From Escherichia phage DT571/2: a stretch of 64,000 nt of DNA. Every line of letters begins with the position of its first letter. Position 1 is the first letter of the stretch. Shown in pieces: positions 1 through 11,856 of the stretch. The notes under the pieces are model-generated. The model worked only from the letters and a program-made list of their open reading frames with translations, did not search any database and was not told the origin of the DNA. The position numbers and the translations under genes are program-made. The stretch lies in the sequence record NC_047749.1; one strand, written 5' to 3'.

Positions 1-779
1 TCTTAAACAGACTGAAGAAAGTTAAGGCTAAACAAGCCCCTATTCTTTATATGCACGGTGGTTTTGGTGTACGTTTAGATGGGGAAGAGTATGTATGGCC
101 TATTTTTGAAGGTAGATCCTCTGTATCTCTTGGGTATATTGGGGTCTATGAGATGTGTCAAATAATGTTTAGTTTACCACAGACTCATAGGGACTGTATT
201 GAATTTACAGAGGAGGTTCTCACTCACCTAAAAAATCGTTGCGAAGTTAAAGCTAATGAGACTAATCTTGGGTTTAGCTTGTATGCAACTCCTAGTGAGT
301 CTCTATGTAATCGCTTTAATAAACTACTGGAACGTAGGTTCCCTGAGTATTCTTGGCTAACAGATAAAGGTTATCTCACTAATAGTCATCATTTGGACGT
401 AAGGGAGAAGGTAGCTCCAGATACTAAATTTGAGTATGAAGCTCATTTCACCAAAATAGCTAATGGTGGTAATATATCATTTGTGGAACTACCACAAATG
501 AAAAAGTTCCATAAAGCTCTTGAATACGTAGTAGATAAGGGACTAGAATGTAGCCATTATATTGGTGTTAATATACCGATTGATGAGTGCTTCAACTGTG
601 GGTATATGGGTGAATCTGTTGCCTCTGAACGTGGGTTTGTATGTCCGAGTTGTGGATCTGAAGAAATAGAGGTTACACGTAGGGTTTGCGGGTACCTGGG
701 GTCCCCGGGCAGTAGGCCTTTCAATTCTGGGAAACAAAAAGAAGTGCTTGGTAGAGTAAAACACTTAAATCTTAAGTAA
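1..779 (+). CDS. nrdD: Anaerobic ribonucleoside-triphosphate reductase (class III, NrdD), C-terminal part; 5'-truncated by window edge
   Basis: Frame is open from window start to first ATG at 51. C-terminus has CxxC...CxxC zinc-ribbon (CFNCGYMG...CPSCGS) followed by glycyl-radical motif RVCGYLGSP, as in NrdD. Confidence 0.7.
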   Translation, partial: LNRLKKVKAKQAPILYMHGGFGVRLDGEEYVWPIFEGRSSVSLGYIGVYEMCQIMFSLPQTHRDCIEFTEEVLTHLKNRCEVKANETNLGFSLYATPSESLCNRFNKLLERRFPEYSWLTDKGYLTNSHHLDVREKVAPDTKFEYEAHFTKIANGGNISFVELPQMKKFHKALEYVVDKGLECSHYIGVNIPIDECFNCGYMGESVASERGFVCPSCGSEEIEVTRRVCGYLGSPGSRPFNSGKQKEVLGRVKHLNLK

Positions 780-786
780 GCTAATC

Positions 787-819
787 AGCCAGGTTGCTAG
801 TCGACCTGGCTTTTATTTT
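787..819 (+). terminator. Rho-independent terminator after nrdD
   Basis: 8-bp stem agccaggt/acctggct with 9-nt loop, followed by ttttatttt. Confidence 0.6.
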
Positions 820-821
820 AT

Positions 822-850
822 TTGCTTTCAGCCAAAAATTTATATATAAT
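822..850 (+). promoter_or_regulatory. T5-type sigma70 promoter (-35 TTGCTT, 17-bp spacer, -10 TATAAT)
   Basis: ttgctt 822-827, tataat 845-850, then conserved leader agatttgtaaatttgagaggag containing the RBS for the ORF at 879. Confidence 0.65.
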
Positions 851-878
851 AGATTTGTAAATTTGAGAGGAGAAAGCT

Positions 879-1091
879 ATGAGGATTCATAAGGTAGATA
901 AAGATCGTATCTATTTTGTTATGGACTCCGGAGCATATGGATCTATTCTAAGAGAAGATGTTACTAAATTTTGCTTAATAAATACTTGGATGGATAAGGA
1001 GAAGATTGACCCTAGATCAGGCATATGCTTATCGGAACCAGCTCTTTTAATTGCAAATGCAGAAATTGAATTGTTTGAGGACATAGAATGA
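879..1091 (+). CDS. Hypothetical protein (70 aa)
   Basis: ORF directly downstream of promoter with RBS gagaggag; no recognisable motifs. Confidence 0.45.
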   Translation: MRIHKVDKDRIYFVMDSGAYGSILREDVTKFCLINTWMDKEKIDPRSGICLSEPALLIANAEIELFEDIE

Positions 1092-1318
1092 AAAACGTAA
1101 AACACCTTAAATATCGCTTAATTTATAACGGACGTATGGAAACAGAAGAGCTAGCTCAATTAGCTATTAACTCTAATGAGGTTATGGTGCGTGCGCTAGC
1201 AATTGAAAAGTTGCGTGCTTCTTATGAAAGCCGTATTATGCGGCTGGAGGAAACCCTTTATGGACTTCTTGAATCAGAAGCTAGAAGCAACCCAGAGGAC
1301 AGGCCTACTAAGCAATAG
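1088..1318 (+). CDS. Hypothetical protein (76 aa)
   Basis: ATGA start/stop overlap with the preceding ORF suggests translational coupling. Confidence 0.4.
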   Translation: MKNVKHLKYRLIYNGRMETEELAQLAINSNEVMVRALAIEKLRASYESRIMRLEETLYGLLESEARSNPEDRPTKQ

Positions 1319-1386
1319 AAGGTATGTATATAGGGAGTAATTTTACCTCAAAACATTATCGAAGGATTTAAGTGAGGAATTGTACA

Positions 1387-2211
1387 GTGCGTAGATTAAT
1401 TATTATTAGCGGTGCAGGTTTGAGTGTTGAAAGTGGTGTACGAGCCTTCCGTACTGATACTGCTAGTGGTAAAGCATTGTGGGATGATTATGATCTAGAA
1501 GAAGTATGTAATATTCATGCCTTTCGGGGTAATTTTTACCATAAAACCCACACGTTTTACAACAAACGTCGTGAAGAGTTAGAAACTGTTGAACCCAATC
1601 TTGCACACTTGCGTATTGGTGAATGGTATAAGAAATACCCAGGTCAAGTAGTAAACTTGACTACTAACGTTGATGATCTTATTGAGCGTGCTGGCGTTCC
1701 ACATAGTGACATTCTGCACATTCATGGATACTTAAAGGAGGTTGTTGTAGCTGATAGCTACAACAGTAGTAATAAACGAATTATTGATGTTGGGTATAAC
1801 TCTATTGACCCAGATGATTATAAATGGGTTAAACCTAATGTAGTCTTCTTTGGTGAGCATGCTCCAGCGTACGCAGAAATGTATAATATTTTTGATGGTA
1901 TTACCAGTCAAGATATGATCATTATGGTTGGTTGCTCTAACCAAGTAATTAACTTCTACTGGGAATTATTCCCTGTTCTTAATCTGACTGCTGCAAAACT
2001 TATGGTGGTTAACTACTACGATAGTGCTCTAGCGGTGGGACCAGGCTATCAAGGTATGACTCGTAGTGAGATGTACCAACTGGAAGAACGGGGTATTCCT
2101 TACTGGGGTAAAGGTGCGGTAGATGCTTTCAGTGACCCTGATTTTATTGCTCGTGTGGAAGCCCATCTAGAGGGTAGACCTTATATGCCGGGAAAACAGA
2201 TATGTCCATAG
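1387..2211 (+). CDS. Sir2-like (sirtuin-fold) NAD-binding protein lacking the Zn-ribbon
   Basis: N-terminal GAGLSVESGVRAFR matches the sirtuin GAGIS.ESGIP.FR motif; TTNVDDL resembles TQNIDGLH; IHGYL is the HG catalytic-His motif; no CxxC pairs. Start placed at GTG 1387 (SD gagga, 8-nt spacer); ORF track start is 1372. Confidence 0.6.
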   Translation: MRRLIIISGAGLSVESGVRAFRTDTASGKALWDDYDLEEVCNIHAFRGNFYHKTHTFYNKRREELETVEPNLAHLRIGEWYKKYPGQVVNLTTNVDDLIERAGVPHSDILHIHGYLKEVVVADSYNSSNKRIIDVGYNSIDPDDYKWVKPNVVFFGEHAPAYAEMYNIFDGITSQDMIIMVGCSNQVINFYWELFPVLNLTAAKLMVVNYYDSALAVGPGYQGMTRSEMYQLEERGIPYWGKGAVDAFSDPDFIARVEAHLEGRPYMPGKQICP

Positions 2212-2384
2212 TTAAATCTGTGTATACACATCCCGATGATATATTTGTATGGGCGGATGGTAGTTGGTGTTATCGATGTGAGTTATGGGAAATGGACTAT
2301 AAATCCGATGACTATGGTGTCATATATGTTGATACGGTTGAGTATGATATGTTCTTAGAAAGGAACAAAAATGGAAATAAGTAA
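2202..2384 (+). CDS. Hypothetical protein (60 aa)
   Basis: Small ORF overlapping neighbours at both ends; no motifs. Confidence 0.3.
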   Translation: MSIVKSVYTHPDDIFVWADGSWCYRCELWEMDYKSDDYGVIYVDTVEYDMFLERNKNGNK

Positions 2385-2877
2385 TACTCCAATTATTTTT
2401 CTAGACATTGATGGGGTGCTCAACTCGAGCATCTCCCATCACCATGCACCTGATGATGAAAAGATTTTCTTTGGAAGTGACTGGGTTTTTAAACCGCTTC
2501 TCAAGGCTTTTCAGGACTTTATTCGTCCTTCTCCAATAATGATTGTTGGGGTATCTTCATGGTTCTCTGTCAGGAATGAGGTGGAGAACGTTCAGATTAT
2601 GACCAGATTAGATCTTATCGATCGTTTTCTTGGTATAACGGATTTTACTGGTGGTGGGCTATCTAGGGGTAATTCTGTTCTTCGCTTCGTCGAAAAGCAT
2701 AAGCTCAAACATTGGTGTGTGCTGGATGATGCTGGTGCTATGATGTATCAGTATCCAACAGTTATAGTCAACGGTAGAACTGGAATAAATCTTCAAGACT
2801 TAAGAGCTGTTAGCTATATGTTAGAATTTAGTCCAGATCTTGAAATGTGTAAAGCCCTACAACAATTTAAGGTGTAA
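2371..2877 (+). CDS. HAD-superfamily hydrolase-like protein
   Basis: N-terminal FLDIDGVLN matches HAD motif I (DxDGT/V). Confidence 0.5.
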   Translation: MEISNTPIIFLDIDGVLNSSISHHHAPDDEKIFFGSDWVFKPLLKAFQDFIRPSPIMIVGVSSWFSVRNEVENVQIMTRLDLIDRFLGITDFTGGGLSRGNSVLRFVEKHKLKHWCVLDDAGAMMYQYPTVIVNGRTGINLQDLRAVSYMLEFSPDLEMCKALQQFKV

Positions 2878-2879
2878 AT

Positions 2880-3308
2880 ATGTTCAATAATGTATTCTCT
2901 AAAGAAGCTAACCCAATATTGGTTAATTTTTGGCGTACTCTTCCAGCCAACCTGTACAATGAGGCTATTAATGCTCTGAAAATATGGTGTGAGAATAATG
3001 AAATCTCCTTTGCTTTTAAGGATGAGATTGAAGAAGCTCCCTGTATTGGTTTAATTGTGCAGGTAGAGGATGGCTTTGAAGAGATTATCGGATGGAAAGA
3101 GCTGGATGAAATGGGATTGGTTTTTGCATTAAACTATAAGCTATTTATGCCCAATAAACACCGTATTGTTGTTAATTATAAAACCAGTGAATCTCCGGGC
3201 TTTCAAGTTAATGAACATTACGGTTGGTCTTACTCACCGGAAGAAGTAAATGATGGTATCCAAAGACTTCGTCGTTTTGGTTATCAAATTCCGGGTTTAA
3301 CCGCCTAA
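2880..3308 (+). CDS. Hypothetical protein, paralog A (142 aa)
   Basis: Shares C(I/V)G...(W/D)(K/N)EL(D/S)(E/A)MGL(V/I)(F/V)ALN(Y/F)(K/S)LF(M/H)P...(I/V)PGL with the next ORF. Confidence 0.5.
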   Translation: MFNNVFSKEANPILVNFWRTLPANLYNEAINALKIWCENNEISFAFKDEIEEAPCIGLIVQVEDGFEEIIGWKELDEMGLVFALNYKLFMPNKHRIVVNYKTSESPGFQVNEHYGWSYSPEEVNDGIQRLRRFGYQIPGLTA

Positions 3309-3317
3309 GGGGACACA

Positions 3318-3710
3318 ATGGAACAAGTATATTGGCGTCAGATTGATCCTAGTTTGGTGAAGAGTGCGGAGAAGCTGCTACAACGTTGGTTGGGGGTAAG
3401 ACAAGCCTCCTTCACTTTTCCGGAGCAGCAAATAGACGATCCCTGTGTTGGTGTTTTCCTATCAGGCTACGCTAGGGAAGTGGAATTGGATTGGAATGAA
3501 TTGTCTGCTATGGGTTTAATTGTTGCACTAAATTTCTCTTTGTTCCATCCACGTGGGTTGGCAATATGTCGTGTGCCTGATGACGGTTGTTCGCCCCATC
3601 TTTTACAGGTGGAAGATGATATTTGGGAGTACCCTCCAGATATTCTCAAAGAAGCTAAAGAACAATTAAATCGTGTTGGGATTTATGTTCCAGGCCTGAA
3701 TGATGAATGA
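3318..3710 (+). CDS. Hypothetical protein, paralog B (130 aa)
   Basis: Tandem paralog of 2880-3308 (same motif block and same C-terminal PGL ending). Confidence 0.5.
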   Translation: MEQVYWRQIDPSLVKSAEKLLQRWLGVRQASFTFPEQQIDDPCVGVFLSGYAREVELDWNELSAMGLIVALNFSLFHPRGLAICRVPDDGCSPHLLQVEDDIWEYPPDILKEAKEQLNRVGIYVPGLNDE

Positions 3711-3801
3711 TTTTTATTAGCTGAACTCTGATTACCGAGTCATTTTGGCTCGGTTTTCTCTATGCTCAAAGACACTGGTAGCAGCCCCTGGAAAAATTTA
3801 C

Positions 3802-3830
3802 TTGCTTGATGCTCAAAATCTTGATATAAT
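3802..3830 (+). promoter_or_regulatory. T5-type sigma70 promoter firing into a ~0.6-kb non-coding stretch
   Basis: ttgctt 3802-3807, 17-bp spacer, tataat 3825-3830, leader atttatattgaattgagagac; no ORF of 60 aa or more on + until 4425. Confidence 0.55.
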
Positions 3831-4424
3831 ATTTATATTGAATTGAGAGACATTAGTAAAAATTGATTTTGCTAATTTTTCTTAGTGAAGCTGACAAGGG
3901 ATTTACGGCGAGAGGAATCGATGACCCGTAAATAGCTGCATAAGGTACGTTGCTAGAGCTTTACGAAAAAGTTTTTTCTTGTTTACAATCCGCGATACGG
4001 AACAGTTAGGCTGCCCCATTAAGGGTTGTTTTAACTATTACTAGTGTTTATATTGCATTAGTTAACCTTCAATTAAGTGATCTGTGTACCCTGAATTCGG
4101 AAAGGTAAATCCAAACCGTGCATATTTAGCTCGTTATATAGGCAGAGCTTTATATGGGGGTGCGAACGAAAAGAGCAGCGAATGGCGGCACGTACAGTAG
4201 TCACCTACCAATAGGATAGTGAGGACAAGTAGAATCGGCTTAGCGGCCAATGACCTAGGTTCTATTCTGTATAAGAGCGAAGAGAGCACAGCACTGAGAT
4301 ATGATAACTTATTCATATTGTTTGATGATAATTGATGTTTACGTAAATAGTAGTAATAGTTGTTCTATTCTTTCTGAATAGTCCTAAAGAAAAGATTTCG
4401 ATTAACCAACACAGGAGTATTATT

Positions 4425-7214
4425 GTGTTTTCTATCCTCCAAGGTCACGCCGGGTTTTCTCGTGATTTAGCAACAGGTATTTGGCGAGAAATCAAAGCGG
4501 GAGATTATACCTTTGCCAAGCGATTCTCGAAAGAGCATCCAGAAGGTAAACCAGCTTCTATGCCCTTCAAATTTGATGTAATAGAAGAGCACGACCCACA
4601 AAGCCTTGCAGAAATGTTACCACTTATGAGACGTTTAACGTCTGACCCTCATATCGTTGCGGTACGAGGTCGATGTCTTGCACCTAAAAATAATGTGCGA
4701 CGTAAGAAAGATAACTTTAATGTATCTAATCCTAGTAATATTATTGCTATGGACGTGGATGGTATCCTAGATACCGGTGGGTACGACAAATTTAATCTTG
4801 TTGGTATGGCCCGCCACATTATTAAGATGTTGAATAGTATTAGTGAGGATATGTTTCCTCTTGATGCAGGCTTTATAGCTCATGCATCATCTTCGGCTGG
4901 GCTAAAACCAGGTATCCGAATGCACTTAATACTAGAATCTAACGTCAAGGTAACTCAGGGTCAGCTAAAGTTCTTATTTACATCTATCAATGATAGTAGT
5001 AAGCAAAAATTTGGTTTTGATATTGCCGACCTAGCTTATTACTCATCTGTCCAGCTCCACTATTTTGCCGACCCCTTATTTAGCGATGGTATTGTTGATC
5101 CGTTTAAAGCGGAGAGTAAGCCACGTCTGGTGTATGTTAAAGGCTCAAAAGTAAACTTACCTAATAATCTAGTTGACTATGAAACAACTAGAGGAGAGTT
5201 TAAAGAGGAATTCTACTCTTTACTCGATCAAATTAAAGGCAAAAAGATTGCTTCTGATAAAGTAGAAGAAACCATCAGCGAGTTAGAAGAGGCTGATGAT
5301 GGAGTGTACTTGCGTATTATCCCCAAACTATACCATAGAGCATTAGAGGATGGTGTTGATTTTGAATGGCTAGAACGTGAGATTAAACCAGCTTTATCTG
5401 AATATATTGCAACTAAAGATAACAGTCGTAATATTCAAGATTACTTTAATAACGGTCGCAAGCAGGCTCTCAAAGCGTTTGTTAATAATTCTAAACGTGA
5501 GATTCCACCAAATCTGAAAGGTGTTCCACTTAAGAAATTAGAAGTGGATTCTCCACCAGAAGTTCCGTACCTGAAGATTAACATTGTGCCCCCAAAAGGT
5601 CATATAACATTTGTTAAGGCAAGTCTTGGTACGGGTAAAACTACGGCAGTAACTAAATGGCTGGACGCAGGTGTTCTTCCGGGCAACTTTTTAGCAGTTA
5701 CAAATACTAGAGCACTGGTATCTTCAAATGCCAAGAAATTTAGTGCAGGACAATACGATAAGTCTGTAGATATGCTCAACTTTAAACGTGGGGCTATTGA
5801 TCGTATGTCCACAACTATTCACTCTTTGCATAAGTTCAAAAGTTTTATTGGGCAAATAGACACCATTTTTATTGATGAATGTGACGCTGTAATGAATGAC
5901 CTATTATTCGCCCCTGTTGTTAAACAACGTCGCGAGTGTATTCAAGTTCTACGTGACATCCTCATGACAGCTAAGACTGTAATCTTATCCGATGGTGATA
6001 TTAGTGCGGAAACAATTGAAGCATATGGTTCTTTGATTGAGTTCGATAAACCAGTTGCATTTTACAATCACCACCGTAAAATGTTATCAAAGGCTCATGC
6101 TTATGAATTCCCTGATGAATCCAGTATTTGGGTTGCACTTCAGACTTCTCTAGAGATGGGTGAGAAATCTATTCTAGTATCTGATTGTGGTCCTGATGAG
6201 CTGAATGAGAAGGGTATGGCACTACGTCGTAATACTGGTGCATTAGTTAAAGAAATCCATTCAAACTCCACTTCAGATGTGGATATTCGACGTATTCTGG
6301 ATTATACAACTAATGAGCTAATTGATCAACAAATTGATTGCTTATTATGTAGTCCATCCGTAACGAGTGGAGTTGACTTTAACTATTTTGATAACGTATT
6401 TGTTATTACTAGAACCAGTAATCAGGCGCCAAACATGCGTTTTCAAGCAATCAGGCGCGACCGTGGTGCTCAGAATATCTATTATTTTATTGATAAATCC
6501 ACTAGTGGATTCTCTGCGGGTTCTGAACAATATAATATCGATGAAGGTTGGCTGGAGTTAGCACAGCAATTATATGCACGTCGCAGGGAGCTGGAGTCTA
6601 GGAACTATACTAGTACTTTACGTTATTACTTGCTTGATCAGGGTGCAACTATTGATATTTTCAGTGAAAGCTGGGGAACTATTGAAGGTGCTGGTAAAGA
6701 ATACACAGAAGAGCGAATCAAAGCTATTCTACATTCAACTCCTGATTATTGTGCTCCACGTCATGCGGATGCGTATGAGGCTAAACTACTTATTGTTCGC
6801 TATTATCATCTTGAGTCTATTAAAGATGTAACAGTTGAGCATGTTGAACAATATATCAAAGATAAGCCGAATGATCGAGCTGCATTCTTCCATAAGATGC
6901 ACGAGATGTTCTGGGAAGATATTAAGAAGTGTTCAAATGTGACCATTAAACCATTCATAGAAGCTCTGAAAGGTAAGAAGAAAGATTTCTTCCTTAAAAC
7001 AGGTCAGAGTGCTAACCCAAAATATGCTAGAATGTATCTTGGTATGATGGGTATTGGTAAAGATATGAACACGGAGAATATCGTAGACTGGTATAGAACC
7101 TACTGCAAAATCGAATGTATGCCAATCCCTCTCAAATTCATGACTGAAGAAGAGAAGGCTATGGCAGAAGAAGCAATGTCAGAACTAGGTGCTAGAAATG
7201 ACAGTGAAGAATAA
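4425..7214 (+). CDS. 929-aa Walker A/B ATPase-helicase, putative replication initiator/origin-binding-type protein
   Basis: GTG start with SD acaggag 7 nt upstream; Walker A SLGTGKTT and Walker B FIDECD in the C-terminal half; N-terminal half has DVDG (DxD) and GIRMH motifs compatible with a primase-polymerase-like domain. Confidence 0.6.
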   Translation: MFSILQGHAGFSRDLATGIWREIKAGDYTFAKRFSKEHPEGKPASMPFKFDVIEEHDPQSLAEMLPLMRRLTSDPHIVAVRGRCLAPKNNVRRKKDNFNVSNPSNIIAMDVDGILDTGGYDKFNLVGMARHIIKMLNSISEDMFPLDAGFIAHASSSAGLKPGIRMHLILESNVKVTQGQLKFLFTSINDSSKQKFGFDIADLAYYSSVQLHYFADPLFSDGIVDPFKAESKPRLVYVKGSKVNLPNNLVDYETTRGEFKEEFYSLLDQIKGKKIASDKVEETISELEEADDGVYLRIIPKLYHRALEDGVDFEWLEREIKPALSEYIATKDNSRNIQDYFNNGRKQALKAFVNNSKREIPPNLKGVPLKKLEVDSPPEVPYLKINIVPPKGHITFVKASLGTGKTTAVTKWLDAGVLPGNFLAVTNTRALVSSNAKKFSAGQYDKSVDMLNFKRGAIDRMSTTIHSLHKFKSFIGQIDTIFIDECDAVMNDLLFAPVVKQRRECIQVLRDILMTAKTVILSDGDISAETIEAYGSLIEFDKPVAFYNHHRKMLSKAHAYEFPDESSIWVALQTSLEMGEKSILVSDCGPDELNEKGMALRRNTGALVKEIHSNSTSDVDIRRILDYTTNELIDQQIDCLLCSPSVTSGVDFNYFDNVFVITRTSNQAPNMRFQAIRRDRGAQNIYYFIDKSTSGFSAGSEQYNIDEGWLELAQQLYARRRELESRNYTSTLRYYLLDQGATIDIFSESWGTIEGAGKEYTEERIKAILHSTPDYCAPRHADAYEAKLLIVRYYHLESIKDVTVEHVEQYIKDKPNDRAAFFHKMHEMFWEDIKKCSNVTIKPFIEALKGKKKDFFLKTGQSANPKYARMYLGMMGIGKDMNTENIVDWYRTYCKIECMPIPLKFMTEEEKAMAEEAMSELGARNDSEE

Positions 7215-7431
7215 AAAATGGGAAACAAGGAAGTTTCCAGTAAAAGAACGTAAAGTTCCTGTTTATGATACTTCGGAGAAGCTATGTAGGGTGGTTCCTG
7301 CTAGACTAGCAGGTATCCCTAACATATCCGAGTGGTTACTTAAACAACGGAGGACTAGCGTATCCCTTCGCATAGGGTTTGAGTTGGATAAAGTATATGC
7401 TGAACTTTCTTCTTTGCTCAAGGAATCATAA
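7189..7431 (+). CDS. Hypothetical protein (80 aa)
   Basis: ORF overlaps the end of the 929-aa gene; basic; weak support. Confidence 0.3.
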   Translation: MLEMTVKNKKWETRKFPVKERKVPVYDTSEKLCRVVPARLAGIPNISEWLLKQRRTSVSLRIGFELDKVYAELSSLLKES

Positions 7432-7440
7432 AAAATTTAC

Positions 7441-7469
7441 TTGCATAGTTCAAAAAATTTCTGTATAAT
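7441..7469 (+). promoter_or_regulatory. T5-type strong early promoter (PN25-like)
   Basis: A-rich upstream tcataaaaaatttac, -35 ttgcat 7441-7446, 17-bp spacer, -10 tataat 7464-7469, leader agattcataaatttgagagaggag; near-identical to the T5 PN25 promoter as I recall it. Confidence 0.8.
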
Positions 7470-7500
7470 AGATTCATAAATTTGAGAGAGGAGTTTAAAT

Positions 7501-8205
7501 ATGGCTGGTTCTCGCAGAAAGAAACATATCCATGAAATCCCGGATGAAGTCTTTAAAAAAGTTATAGAGCATCTGGAGAACGGTGGTACTAAGAAAGCAG
7601 CATGTGAGATGCTCGGCGTATCATCCAATCCGACTATGGAAAGGATGATAGAAGAGTGGCAAGATCGCCAAATTCAAGTTGCCGAGATGAAGAAAAAGAA
7701 ACGTGGTACACTCATTGAAGGCATCGAGTTAGCTAACGTTATTGAACAGTATTTATCCGGTGATTCTTTTGAAGAGATTGCCGATCGTAATTATCGCTCT
7801 GTAGCAATGGTTAAATCTGTTCTGGAACGATATGGTGCTCTACTTCGTTTGAACGATATTGTAGACCCGTTGAATCCACCAATTATTCCTGATGATGCTG
7901 TAGCAGAAGAATTTGAAGTAGGTGAGCTAGTTTGGGTTCCTGGATACCAGTGTATCGGTGAAATCAAAAAAGCAATGGATAACCCTGTTGGTTGTTACCG
8001 TGTATGGCTTCTATCAGAAGGCAAACAACAGAATGTTCATTATATGAATTATGAATTAGCTTCTGTAAAGCATTTAGAAAAGCTAGGGGTTGACGTAAAA
8101 TCTCTGGGGTATAAATGGTCCCGGGAAGAAGTTATCACACTGATTAACGAAGCTGTTAAGGCTGCCTTGAAACTTGATAAAGAAAAAGGAAAACGCCGTG
8201 AGTAA
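7501..8205 (+). CDS. Putative DNA-binding transcription regulator with two HTH motifs
   Basis: HTH-like GTKKAACEMLGVS, and SFEEIADRNYRSVAMVKSVLERYG resembling sigma70 region-4 helices; immediately downstream of a strong promoter. Confidence 0.5.
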   Translation: MAGSRRKKHIHEIPDEVFKKVIEHLENGGTKKAACEMLGVSSNPTMERMIEEWQDRQIQVAEMKKKKRGTLIEGIELANVIEQYLSGDSFEEIADRNYRSVAMVKSVLERYGALLRLNDIVDPLNPPIIPDDAVAEEFEVGELVWVPGYQCIGEIKKAMDNPVGCYRVWLLSEGKQQNVHYMNYELASVKHLEKLGVDVKSLGYKWSREEVITLINEAVKAALKLDKEKGKRRE

Positions 8206-9275: not shown

Positions 9276-9300
9276 AGCCCCTATATGGGGCTTTTTGTGT
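9276..9300 (+). terminator. Rho-independent terminator
   Basis: Stem agcccc/ggggct, loop tatat, followed by ttttt. Confidence 0.6.
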
Positions 9301-9315
9301 ATTTGAGAAACGTAA

Positions 9316-9624
9316 ATGAGCGATCAGGTAAACCAAAACTATGAAGGACACGTTGATGATCAGTCAATCCTTCTATGGGAAAGAGAAGGGGAACAAATAA
9401 GATTGACAGTATCTGAATTTCGTGGGAATCTATACATGGGAATTAGGTATTGGCTCCAGGATATTACTGGAGAATGGTTTCCAACGAAATCCGGCTTCTC
9501 TTTTCCGTACACTCTAGAAACTACTTCACAGCTATTCTATGCTTTTACGCAAATCCTTAGTGAATCTGAGGTTTTACATGAAGTACAGAAACGAGCTGAA
9601 GAACTCAAAGCCAAGAATGCCTAG
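9316..9624 (+). CDS. Hypothetical protein (102 aa)
   Basis: ORF with downstream terminator; no motifs. Confidence 0.45.
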   Translation: MSDQVNQNYEGHVDDQSILLWEREGEQIRLTVSEFRGNLYMGIRYWLQDITGEWFPTKSGFSFPYTLETTSQLFYAFTQILSESEVLHEVQKRAEELKAKNA

Positions 9625-9640
9625 TTCTTGGCTTTTTCTT
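9611..9640 (+). terminator. Rho-independent terminator
   Basis: Stem gccaagaa/ttcttggc followed by tttttcttt. Confidence 0.6.
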
Positions 9641-9651
9641 TATAAATGTAT

Positions 9652-9680
9652 TTGCTTTCAACTCAGTTTTGTTATATAAT
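9652..9680 (+). promoter_or_regulatory. T5-type sigma70 promoter
   Basis: ttgctt 9652-9657, 17-bp spacer, tataat 9675-9680, leader atttatataaattaatgagagg. Confidence 0.65.
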
Positions 9681-9694
9681 ATTTATATAAATTA

Positions 9695-9910
9695 ATGAGA
9701 GGATCAATCATGGCAATGACAATAACACTTCCCAAGATTCAAGCAAAACTTAATCTACTTTCCACAGCACGCATTAATTATCAAGATAACATAGGCACAG
9801 TAAATCAAAAGGCGTACAAAGATGCGTTTCTGAAAGAATCTGCTGATTTGATGGATATGGTTACACAATATAATAAAGAACTCAAGATGGAAATCGCCGA
9901 TGATGACTAA
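9695..9910 (+). CDS. Hypothetical protein (71 aa)
   Basis: RBS gagagga; ATGA overlap with ligase subunit A start. Confidence 0.45.
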   Translation: MRGSIMAMTITLPKIQAKLNLLSTARINYQDNIGTVNQKAYKDAFLKESADLMDMVTQYNKELKMEIADDD

Positions 9911-10874
9911 TGTAAAAGAATTTATTAAACGCTGTCAAGAAGCATATTATCAAGGCATGTCTTTAATCTCTGATGAAGAATATGATCGCCTGGTAAAACG
10001 CTTCCCGTTAGAGGAAGAGATCGGGCCTAAGGGTGATATTCCACATCTATACCGTATGTATTCTTTACAGAAAGTTTATTATAATCGTGGAGATAAACCC
10101 CCATTTAACCCGTTAGGTCAAGTAGAAACTGATAAGTTAGATGGTTGTGCAATTTCCCTGCTATATATTAATGGCGAATTTGTTCAAGCACTAACTCGTG
10201 GTAATGGTATTCTGGGAAATGATGTCACAAGCAACGTAAGATTGCTGAACATCCCTAAAAAGATTTCTCAAAAAGTACCTACTCAAATCACTGGTGAAGT
10301 TCTAATTACAAAAGAAGTAGAAAATAAACGTAACTTTGCCTCTGGTGCTATTAACCTCAAAGATAGTGATGATTTCGTACAGCGTATCGGGGAAGGTGGT
10401 TTAATCTTCGTTGCATACGGTATCCAGTGTTCTGCTGAATCTGTAGGTATTACAGAAGCGTATTTAAAAGATATGCTTTGGCTAGAGAATGAGAACTTCT
10501 TAACAGTTGTTAATGTACGTTCCTTCTTTAAATGGATTCCAACGGACGGTAAAGTTGTTCGTATTAATGATAACAACAAATTCTTCCGTGAAGGCTGGAC
10601 TAATAAATTTCCTCGCGGTGCATTTGCTATTAAAGAGGATGAAGAAGGTGAGACTACAACTCTTACTAAAGTTGAATGGAATGTAGGGGCTTCTGGTAAA
10701 GTAACTCCAGTCGGTTATTTTGAACCAGTAATTATTGATGATGCTACAATTGTTAAAGCGACTCTTAATAACGTTGATTATATTAACTCTCTCGATCTAG
10801 AGATCGGTTGCCAGATTCGAGTGATTCGTGCTGGTGGTGTAATCCCGTGCATAGTAGAACGAGTATACGATTAA
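9900..10874 (+). CDS. NAD-dependent DNA ligase, N-terminal subunit (adenylation + OB domains)
   Basis: LigA-like N-terminus (ISDEEYDRL), adenylation lysine motif KLDGCA, OB-fold-like C-terminus; no Zn-finger, HhH or BRCT. Confidence 0.75.
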   Translation: MMTNVKEFIKRCQEAYYQGMSLISDEEYDRLVKRFPLEEEIGPKGDIPHLYRMYSLQKVYYNRGDKPPFNPLGQVETDKLDGCAISLLYINGEFVQALTRGNGILGNDVTSNVRLLNIPKKISQKVPTQITGEVLITKEVENKRNFASGAINLKDSDDFVQRIGEGGLIFVAYGIQCSAESVGITEAYLKDMLWLENENFLTVVNVRSFFKWIPTDGKVVRINDNNKFFREGWTNKFPRGAFAIKEDEEGETTTLTKVEWNVGASGKVTPVGYFEPVIIDDATIVKATLNNVDYINSLDLEIGCQIRVIRAGGVIPCIVERVYD

Positions 10875-11073: not shown

Positions 11074-11856
11074 TTGATGAAAATCGAAATTCCAACACAA
11101 TGTCCCTCTTGTGGTTCTAAGCTAGATCTTGTCAACGGACAATTATTCTGTCGTAATAAGTCCAACTGTCCAGCGCAATCAAGTAAGTTAATTGAGAACT
11201 TCTGTACAAAAATGAAGTTAAAGGGCTTTGGCCCGAAAACTATTGAGAAGCTGGAGCTGACGAAGATTTCAGAACTATTTTACCTAACCGAAGAAGATTT
11301 GGTTAGAGCCGTGGGTAGCAAGGTTGCCGCTAAGTTAATTAGCGAATTAAATACTAAAGTTCGCGGAGACATTGACTTTGGTTCAGTTCTCGGTTCTTTA
11401 GGAATCCCTCTAATTGGAGAGGTTGCAGCAAAGAAATTATCCCAAAATTGCACTAGCTTCCACGATGTGAAGGCTGACGGCAAGGCTGGAGAAAACTATA
11501 AAGCCTGGCTAAATTCCCCACAAGGCAAGGATGTTATCGAATTACCGTGGAAATTCTCAAATGGTATTAAAGGTGCTAAAGCTGACATCATCATTACAGA
11601 TGAATTAGTTGCCCCGCCAAATGGAATCACGGTGTGTATTACCGGATCTTTGCAAGATTTTGCAAATCGAACGGATGCAACAAACTATCTAGAAGGTCTA
11701 GGGTATACTGTTAAAAAATCAGTTACCAAAGACGTTAAATACCTCATCTGTGAGGATGAATCTAAGCGTTCTTCCTCATCTTATAAGAAAGCCGAAACGA
11801 ATGGGATAGAAATCCTGTCGATTAAAGAACTATTGGAGAAAAATAATAATGTCTAA
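11074..11856 (+). CDS. NAD-dependent DNA ligase, C-terminal subunit (Zn-finger, HhH, BRCT-like)
   Basis: Begins with Cys4 zinc finger CPSCGSKLD...CRNKSNC typical of LigA; Gly-rich helix-hairpin-helix-like segments; BRCT-like C-terminus (ITGSL...). Confidence 0.7.
   Translation: MMKIEIPTQCPSCGSKLDLVNGQLFCRNKSNCPAQSSKLIENFCTKMKLKGFGPKTIEKLELTKISELFYLTEEDLVRAVGSKVAAKLISELNTKVRGDIDFGSVLGSLGIPLIGEVAAKKLSQNCTSFHDVKADGKAGENYKAWLNSPQGKDVIELPWKFSNGIKGAKADIIITDELVAPPNGITVCITGSLQDFANRTDATNYLEGLGYTVKKSVTKDVKYLICEDESKRSSSSYKKAETNGIEILSIKELLEKNNNV

Follow-up and report, generated by a model that had tools for sequence, protein, structure and literature searches.

A Sir2-Family Gene in a T5-Like Phage

The 64,000-nucleotide stretch of Escherichia phage DT571/2 analyzed here (sequence record NC_047749.1; hereafter the window, meaning that stretch at its full length) carries near its beginning a gene for a Sir2-like protein, which an original prediction had singled out as a zinc-ribbon-free candidate for consuming nicotinamide adenine dinucleotide (NAD) or for an NAD-dependent modification. 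A megablast search with positions 1–4400 returned 529 phage records, the best of them Tequintavirus genomes at 91–96% identity (among them Gostya9, ESCO30, HildyBeyeler, and H8); the window belongs to a Tequintavirus, i.e., a T5-like phage, and its Sir2 gene is the orthologue of T5.102. The gene is already known—it is annotated "Sir2-like" throughout GenBank, some 1,000 phage records having it under that name—and is ordinary as a sequence feature. Its elements are as follows:

1374–1378, plus strand: Shine-Dalgarno GAGGA, read from the sequence, 8 nucleotides (nt) 5' of GTG 1387
1387–2211, plus strand: Sir2 coding sequence (CDS), T5.102 orthologue, GTG start; examined by Pfam, phrog, AlphaFold2, fold matches, and dN/dS (nonsynonymous to synonymous substitution rates)
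1411–1452, plus strand: NAD-binding loop GAGLSVESGVRAFR, residues 9–22, including Phe21 and Arg22; from alignments
1558–1569, plus strand: Y58-N-K-R61, the class III YxxR anion-recognition motif; aligns with CobB Y92/R95
1660–1677, plus strand: TTNVDD, equivalent of the canonical TQNID; Asn94 and Asp96 kept, Thr93 replacing Gln
1723–1725, plus strand: catalytic His113; aligns with the CobB catalytic His
1726–1833, plus strand: small beta-module G114–K149 in place of the zinc ribbon; no Cys; clade motif D-V-G-Y

The plus-strand open reading frame (ORF; 1372/1387–2211) was confirmed in the window, with the Sir2 CDS at 1387–2211 encoding 274 amino acids (aa). We take GTG 1387 to be the true start because of the spacing of the GAGGA, because the N-termini of all 40 aligned homologues (MRRL/MRRV or MPRR) fall there, and because the ESCO30 orthologue has an ATG at this position. 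The longer ORF from GTG 1372 was rejected on the ribosome-binding site and the homologue N-termini, and the coordinates first proposed for the gene proved exact. Its product matches Pfam SIR2 (PF02146; E = 1e-24; 87.9 bits against a cut-off of 24) over profile positions 1–178 of 180, and phrog_2162 ("Sir2"; E = 4e-119). By its above-threshold profile score, its motif set, and a Rossmann plus small domain in three dimensions, it falls within the SIR2/sirtuin superfamily, and it is a Sir2-family protein with every catalytic residue intact, apparently an active NAD-using enzyme.

Conserved Catalytic Residues and Substrate Pocket

The sirtuin NAD signature reported earlier (GAGLSVESGVRAFR, TTNVDDL, HG) was read at residues 9–22, 92–98 (nt 1660–1680), and 113–114 (nt 1723–1728), respectively. 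Across 41 aligned homologues, G9, A10, G11, S13, F21, R22, N94, D96, H113, and G114 are invariant, and the same set aligns with CobB residues, His113-Gly114 falling on the catalytic HG of CobB. When 1.84 billion representative proteins were searched with a profile, 156 relatives scored E ≤ 1e-30, and the 150 listed are the representatives counted throughout. Among them the NAD loop keeps its F in 136 and its R in 145, while the TTNVDD columns keep N in 149 and D in 145, with position 93 a Q in 92 and a T in 44. Loss of the catalytic histidine, looked for as a refutation of the original prediction, was not found: His113 is present, and is kept in 149 of the 150.

The pocket is conserved in the same manner. 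The CobB residues A76, Y92, R95, I131, H147, V187, F190, and V219 correspond to C41, Y58, R61, V95, H113, V152, F155, and V187 of the phage protein, and all eight positions are invariant in the 41-homologue alignment (CobB numbering was taken from the alignment and checked against the mutant names A76, Y92, I131, and V187 in PDB 6RX* entries). Among the representatives, Tyr58 is retained in 143 and Arg61 in 109, with L, M, F, or V standing in for Arg61 in some 30. The putative acyl-lysine tunnel and the anion-binding YxxR motif—the acidic-acyl motif of class III sirtuins (CobB/SIRT5)—are conserved, a point that the original prediction had not made.

Secondary Loss of the Zinc Ribbon

As originally noted, the four-Cys zinc ribbon is missing. 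The whole protein has three cysteines (C41, C183, and C273), none of which lies between H113 and K149, and the segment is instead modeled by AlphaFold2, with its flank, as strands at residues 114–122, 131–134, and 147–152. In a column-by-column alignment Val121 stands at the first Cys column and the other three Cys columns are gaps, i.e., the knuckles of the class III Cys-based ribbon have been substituted or deleted. At least four Cys as CxxC...CxxC are present in the H113–K149 segment of 87 of the 150 representatives and no Cys in 42 of them; among the closest relatives of the T5 protein nearly every one is zinc-free, and an I-G-Y motif is common to the zinc-containing relatives.

Because more distant relatives keep CxxC...CxxC, the loss of zinc is secondary, having come about by substitution and deletion within a clade of otherwise normal sirtuins, with the small module retained. 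Zinc in sirtuins is structural, not catalytic. The argument "no zinc, hence defense-type NADase," on which the original prediction leaned, therefore fails: only the cysteines have been lost while the small domain stays. The protein also has no PADLOC match and, among the operon genes, no defense partner.

Fold and Closest Relatives

The AlphaFold2 model of the protein has a predicted local distance difference test score (pLDDT) of 88.8, and among PDB sequences E. coli CobB matches best (E = 1e-17), with Sir2Af1, Sir2Af2, and SIRT5 next. The structural comparison with SIR2 NADases versus deacetylases, called for at the outset, was run, and similarity is lower to the defense NADases than to the deacylases. 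By sequence and predicted fold, then, the nearest relatives of the phage protein are class III deacylases (CobB, Sir2Af1, and SIRT5), and the defense NADases stand at a clearly greater distance.

The likeness to CobB and SIRT5 (PDB 1S5P, 6RXJ, 3RIY) extends over the GAGxS, FR, N, D, and HG catalytic set, the YxxR pair, the hydrophobic tunnel residues, the VxFGE loop, and the two-domain layout. The phage protein differs from them in lacking the zinc cysteines, in having TTN for TQN and VIN for VYP, in an invariant Cys41 where CobB has Ala76, in the phage clade's own D-x-G-Y within the small module, in its overall identity of about 25%, and in being phage-encoded. With the defense SIR2 NADases (ThsA, DSR2, SIR2-HerA, Avs5) it shares the Rossmann SIR2 core with Asn and His and the lack of zinc, but unlike them it keeps the tunnel, the YxxR pair, and the small domain and is without a sensor or partner domain. 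Specifically, a PADLOC defense-model search of the protein found no family at E ≤ 0.01, and Pfam and phrog searches revealed no sensor or HerA/SLOG/pAgo-type partner among the operon genes; the protein is a single domain of 274 aa accompanied by a HAD phosphatase, two DUF7415 proteins, and small ORFs. Profile, partner domain, and closest structural relatives all place it outside the defense SIR2 NADases (ThsA, DSR1/2, SIR2-HerA, SPARSA, Avs5).

The canonical catalytic His is missing from SirTM-type enzymes, whose genes are accompanied by one for a macrodomain; the phage protein has kept its His, and its operon genes include no macrodomain. Domain fusions among the representatives (tandem Sir2, WG repeats, and LRR only) are uninformative on function. 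Whatever its substrate, the protein is very probably not a defense-type NADase but an intact sirtuin, class III-like, that has lost its zinc secondarily.

The Sir2 Operon

The Sir2 gene is the third of seven closely packed or overlapping genes, bounded by the following features:

787–811, plus strand: terminator-like hairpin after nrdD (which ends at 779), the upstream boundary of the Sir2 unit; 10-bp stem, 6 GC pairs, T-run
822–850, plus strand: promoter-like TTGCTT-17 nt-TATAAT, read from the sequence, 28 nt before the first ORF
879–1091, plus strand: 70-aa ORF, operon gene 1; phrog_20147, E = 6e-45; no Pfam match
1088–1318, plus strand: 76-aa ORF, T5.101; phrog_5236, E = 3e-44; annotation table of PMC11879866
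2202–2384, plus strand: 60-aa ORF, T5.103/T5.104; phrog_5116, E = 1.4e-29
2371–2877, plus strand: HAD phosphatase of the "Swiss-army-knife RNA repair" type, T5.105; Pfam HAD_SAK_2, E = 2.3e-20, full length; motif I DIDGV
2880–3308, plus strand: DUF7415 protein a, T5.106; Pfam DUF7415, E = 7e-33; found only in Demerecviridae
3318–3710, plus strand: DUF7415 protein b, T5.107, the last operon gene; Pfam DUF7415, E = 5e-31; tandem paralogue
3734–3754, plus strand: terminator-like hairpin closing the operon; 9-bp stem, 5 GC pairs, T-run

A consensus scan missed the promoter-like element because its -35 hexamer matches at only 3 of 6 positions; we presume a likeness to the classical T5 early promoters. 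The gene order is the same in the best-matching records (nrdD, small ORFs, sir2, small ORF, a 168-aa protein, two paralogues of about 135 aa, and the origin-binding helicase), and the T5 counterparts are T5.099 (nrdD), T5.102 (Sir2), T5.105 (HAD), T5.106/T5.107, and T5.108 (PMC11879866, supplementary file 8).

The HAD gene that had been reported downstream of Sir2 is there, identified as HAD_SAK_2 and starting 159 nt past the Sir2 stop, and the adjacency is conserved. The gap is filled by the conserved 60-codon ORF at 2202–2384, which shares 10 nt with the end of Sir2 and 14 nt with the beginning of HAD, an arrangement suggestive of translational coupling; the phrog_5116 family is present as a tandem pair in T5 (T5.103 and T5.104) and as a single copy in DT571/2. 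The HAD protein had no match among PDB sequences. Its C-terminal half matches phrog_18062 (E = 8e-57), which is named "Sir2 (NAD-dependent deacetylase)," and because of this many phage records list two Sir2 genes ("Sir2 NAD-dependent deacetylase (x2)"), a double label that looks like propagated misannotation. The Gostya9 orthologue of the HAD gene (9296–9682 of the region fetched) is annotated at 128 aa, compared with 168 aa in DT571/2, and a gap comes after it; some close relatives may thus have a truncated HAD gene while retaining Sir2.

The two DUF7415 copies are about 29% identical, and copy a was modeled with confidence, its predicted fold matching nothing in the PDB. An ORF-poor stretch of about 670 bp (3755–4424) separates the operon terminator from the gene for the origin-binding helicase; it opens with a second promoter-like TTGCTT-17-TATAAT (3802–3830) and could hold a non-coding RNA or replication signals; an Rfam scan of positions 1–8000, this stretch included, found no match. 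There are no tRNA genes in the window. The NAD-dependent DNA ligase mentioned in the original prediction is also in the window, as a split gene (9900–10874 and 11074–11856), the first half carrying the adenylation and OB domains and the second HhH and BRCT; Gostya9 annotates the same split as ligA/ligB.

Gene Neighborhoods in Other Phages

By tblastn, the Sir2 protein occurs in 1,006 of 50,697 phage records, spread over T5-like, rV5-like, phi92-like, Vibrio, and jumbo phages. Its context was surveyed in annotated regions and in 59 IMG/VR loci, the ORFs of which were searched with the partner proteins. Among T5-like IMG/VR loci, the HAD gene lies roughly +0.8 kb from Sir2 in 27 of 30, with DUF7415 at roughly +1.3 kb, and Sugarlandvirus-type loci have DUF7415 but no HAD. 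In the roughly 13 loci of the Vequintavirus (rV5)/Mydovirus type, Sir2 is 58–63% identical to the query, and its neighbors no more than 3.5 kb away include a T4-type RNA ligase, a cREC protein, a P-loop kinase, and a metallophosphoesterase, with an ATP-dependent DNA ligase and a MazG-like protein downstream. The jumbo Eneladusvirus type flanks Sir2 with a 2H protein, a Nudix-cREC fusion, and PIN-PhoH, and has NAMPT and NMNAT upstream.

These are the three neighborhood types that Iyer, Burroughs and Aravind described for a phage RNA-repair-associated sirtuin clade (PMC9503650, section 3.7.3), and our survey reproduces them. The DT571/2 gene belongs to this clade and has its T5-type neighborhood, with HAD_SAK_2 159 nt downstream and orthologues within Rnl1/cREC/kinase clusters. 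Their type 3, that of Escherichia phage SP15 (PMC9503650), likewise has Sir2 followed by the HAD phosphatase, with no structural difference, and SP15 is closely related to DT571/2, with a DUF7415 protein that shares 95% identity with the copy found here. For this Sir2–HAD neighborhood in T5-like phages, SP15 being named, a KptA-like 2'-phosphate removal was predicted from gene context in 2022 (PMC9503650).

Other contexts depart from this pattern. The phi92-like phage PD114 has Sir2 33 kb from its RNA-repair cluster, and neither Phapecoctavirus nor Vibrio phage D486 has RNA-end-processing neighbors by Sir2. The partner genes themselves are found in few phages, cREC in 356 and the T5-type HAD in 534 of the 50,697 records; at two extra cREC loci, in Privateer and PD114, examined for an in-situ displacement of Sir2 by KptA, neither Sir2 nor an annotated KptA stands beside cREC. 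The PD114 cluster of cREC, phosphoesterase, and RNA ligase is accompanied by a nicotinamide phosphoribosyltransferase and a PRPP synthetase (259–2957 of the region fetched). Two genes upstream of Sir2 in Erwinia jumbo phage pEa_SNUABM_50 is a 2H protein (3281–3727 of the region fetched) that matches Pfam anti-CBASS Acb1 (E = 5e-16) better than the 2'-5' RNA ligase family; a cyclic-nucleotide role is therefore possible, and this cluster could act on cyclic-nucleotide signals rather than, or besides, RNA ends.

Zinc-free phage Sir2 proteins with the catalytic His were described earlier from KVP40, phiSt2, and phiGrn1 by Skliros et al. (2016), who list the T5 protein as a homologue, citing Wang et al. 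(2005) for it (PMC5107563). The Sir2/CobB proteins of these phages resemble the one studied here in having the catalytic His and no zinc ligands (PMC5107563), and related Vibrio-phage Sir2 proteins are 36–42% identical to the query by tblastn. These Vibrio-phage proteins carry FNE rather than FGE, and in the related phage D486 neither a HAD gene nor one for RNA repair lies less than 4 kb from Sir2. The proteins of KVP40, phiSt2, and phiGrn1 were modeled as deacetylases that activate acetyl-CoA synthetase, which is a prediction (PMC5107563).

Selection and Fitness

Pairwise dN/dS against the orthologues of ESCO30, Gostya9, and the Epseptimavirus "ende" is 0.12–0.22. In a dCas13d knock-down screen of T5 in laboratory E. 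coli, T5.102 and T5.105 were scored "Not Fit," i.e., their knock-down had no measurable fitness cost (PMC11879866, supplementary file 16), and T5.107 was scored "Fit." The origin-binding helicase T5.108 was also "Not Fit" (PMC11879866), so the screen has false negatives. The Sir2 gene is under purifying selection, functional but dispensable. We found no experimental work in the literature on any phage Sir2 except this genome-wide screen.

Candidate Functions of the Phage Sirtuin

Tentatively, we predict that the protein is an NAD+-dependent lysine deacylase, i.e., that it most likely acts on N-epsilon-acyl-lysines of host or phage proteins, with a preference for acyl groups of the succinyl, malonyl, or glutaryl kind; NAD+ turnover, the acyl-lysine substrate, and the acidic-acyl preference are all points that we infer. 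NAD+ would be bound by the GAGLS/FR loop, Asn94, and Asp96, and the substrate side chain would enter a hydrophobic tunnel formed by Cys41, Val95, Val152, Phe155, Val187, and Ile188. The substrate carbonyl oxygen would attack C1' of the nicotinamide ribose, nicotinamide would leave, and His113 would activate the ribose 2'-OH, by which the intermediate would be resolved, with Tyr58 and Arg61 holding a negatively charged distal group at the tunnel end. Expression would be early, from the seven-gene operon between the promoter at 822–850 and the terminator at 3734–3754, and would serve a dispensable accessory function.

What supports deacylation is that CobB, Sir2Af1, and SIRT5 are the closest relatives, that the tunnel is invariant, that the YxxR pair is present, and that no PADLOC match was found. 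In SIRT5 and CobB, replacements of the Arg61 kind alter which acyl chains are preferred, and the hydrophobic residues at this position in some relatives would count for the same reading. So does the acidity of the whole phage Sir2 clade (isoelectric point, pI, 4.6–6.1), which is unusual for RNA-binding enzymes, although it is weak evidence on RNA binding.

Several points weigh against a deacylase. All seven NCBIfam matches of CobB/deacylase type fall below their cut-offs (the best, NF001753, at 100.3 bits against 243), the Gln of TQN has become Thr, the VYP loop has become VIN, and the FGE glycine varies in about one-third of the representatives. Gene context argues for RNA-end processing and lends protein deacylation no support. 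Since the host has a CobB of its own, it is hard to see what the phage would gain, which weakens the case, and our literature search found no biochemical test of any member of the phage clade. Our preference for lysine deacylation over a Tpt1-like role at RNA ends is accordingly a slight lean.

That role—repair of RNA ends in place of Tpt1/KptA, which Iyer, Burroughs and Aravind put forward as a prediction (2022; PMC9503650)—is a serious contender, if somewhat improbable on present evidence. The 2'-phosphate left on RNA by a metal-independent anticodon nuclease or other RNA nuclease would attack C1' of NAD+, and a His113-assisted attack by the ribose 2''-OH would then release 2'-OH RNA and ADP-ribose 1'',2''-cyclic phosphate. 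The HAD enzyme would heal terminal phosphates or dephosphorylate the ADP-ribose product, and Tyr58 and Arg61 would hold a phosphate, not a carboxylate. The Tpt1/KptA fold is unrelated to the sirtuin fold; the phage protein would be a functional analogue, NAD+-dependent and working in two steps through an ADP-ribosylated intermediate, an analogy drawn from gene context only. RNA-repair gene neighborhoods of a comparable kind are on record (PMC9503650), and the Tpt1 step is the only NAD+-consuming one known in RNA repair, with a two-step chemistry that parallels that of sirtuins (PMC9503650).

In favor of RNA repair, the same Sir2 clade stands beside differing RNA-end-processing genes in three kinds of phage, and these partner genes are rare in phages; T5-like phages also have many tRNA genes. 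The laboratory dispensability of T5.102 and T5.105 fits as well, T4 RNA-repair genes being likewise dispensable except on restrictive hosts. Yet the narrow hydrophobic lysine tunnel is strictly conserved, so that entry of an RNA backbone is hard to picture from the sequence, and we know of no sirtuin that acts on nucleic acid. The clade is acidic, and Arg61 gives way to a hydrophobic residue in about 30 of the 150 representatives. There is no RNA ligase, kinase, or cREC gene near Sir2 in T5-like phages, and since T5 has no ligase, kinase, or cyclic-phosphodiesterase there, the host would have to supply them. The adjacency is missing in PD114, Phapecoctavirus, and Vibrio phage D486, the HAD gene is missing in Sugarlandvirus, and the rV5-type metallophosphoesterase, as known from Pnkp, would already remove 2',3'-phosphates. 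We consider it possible, but rather unlikely, that the phage Sir2 clade is the first group of sirtuins to act on nucleic acid, removing 2'- or related terminal phosphates from damaged RNA in an NAD+-dependent reaction as a non-homologous replacement of Tpt1/KptA in the tRNA/RNA repair modules of phages, with the HAD enzyme finishing. This idea has been in print as a prediction since 2022, and therefore only a demonstration would be new.

The third candidate, an NAD+ glycohydrolase or manipulator of the NAD pool that would, by hydrolyzing NAD+ or forming a product derived from ADP-ribose, shut down host metabolism, exclude competing phages, or disturb NAD-derived defense signals, is doubtful. 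An Asn94/His113-type pair is also catalytic in SIR2 NADases, which counts in its favor, and the protein is zinc-free like the defense SIR2 domains. NAMPT and NMNAT near Sir2 in jumbo and some rV5-type phages could offset NAD+ use, and T5-like phages have the NARP3 NAD+-rebuilding pathway (PMC13464706). But the protein lacks a PADLOC match and any activating sensor or partner domain, the conservation of the acyl tunnel and YxxR would have no obvious reason if the acceptor were water, and the phage's own split LigA/LigB ligase needs NAD+. As the lead idea, the defense NADase was rejected on the missing PADLOC match and on a structural similarity lower than to the deacylases. The original prediction is borne out in all its sequence details and in part of its interpretation. 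Of its alternatives, the NAD-dependent modifier (deacylase-type or by ADP-ribosyl transfer) stands as the best reading and the defense-type NADase is poorly supported; nothing was found that specifically favors the suggested counter-defense role.

Less probable again is a mono-ADP-ribosyltransferase of proteins or small molecules, like SirTM or SIRT4/6, that would modify a host target early: the gene has an early position, as T4 ADP-ribosyltransferase genes do, and sirtuins are able to ADP-ribosylate (PMC9503650), but His113 is almost universally kept, no macrodomain is found among the operon genes, and the deacylases are much closer. The SirTM type in particular was rejected, the catalytic His being kept and the macrodomain partner absent. 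What probability remains goes to something else.

Implications for T5-Like Phages

Sir2 is a core accessory gene of the T5-like phages, and its secondary loss of zinc within a folded sirtuin module constitutes a natural experiment on the purpose of the zinc site. The question at stake is what use a virulent phage has for a CobB-like enzyme: to strip acyl marks, or to perform NAD+-dependent RNA repair against tRNA-cutting defenses. Either answer, if true, would add to the view of NAD+ as a contested resource in infection, in phages that have, in addition, an NAD-dependent ligase and a pathway for rebuilding NAD+.

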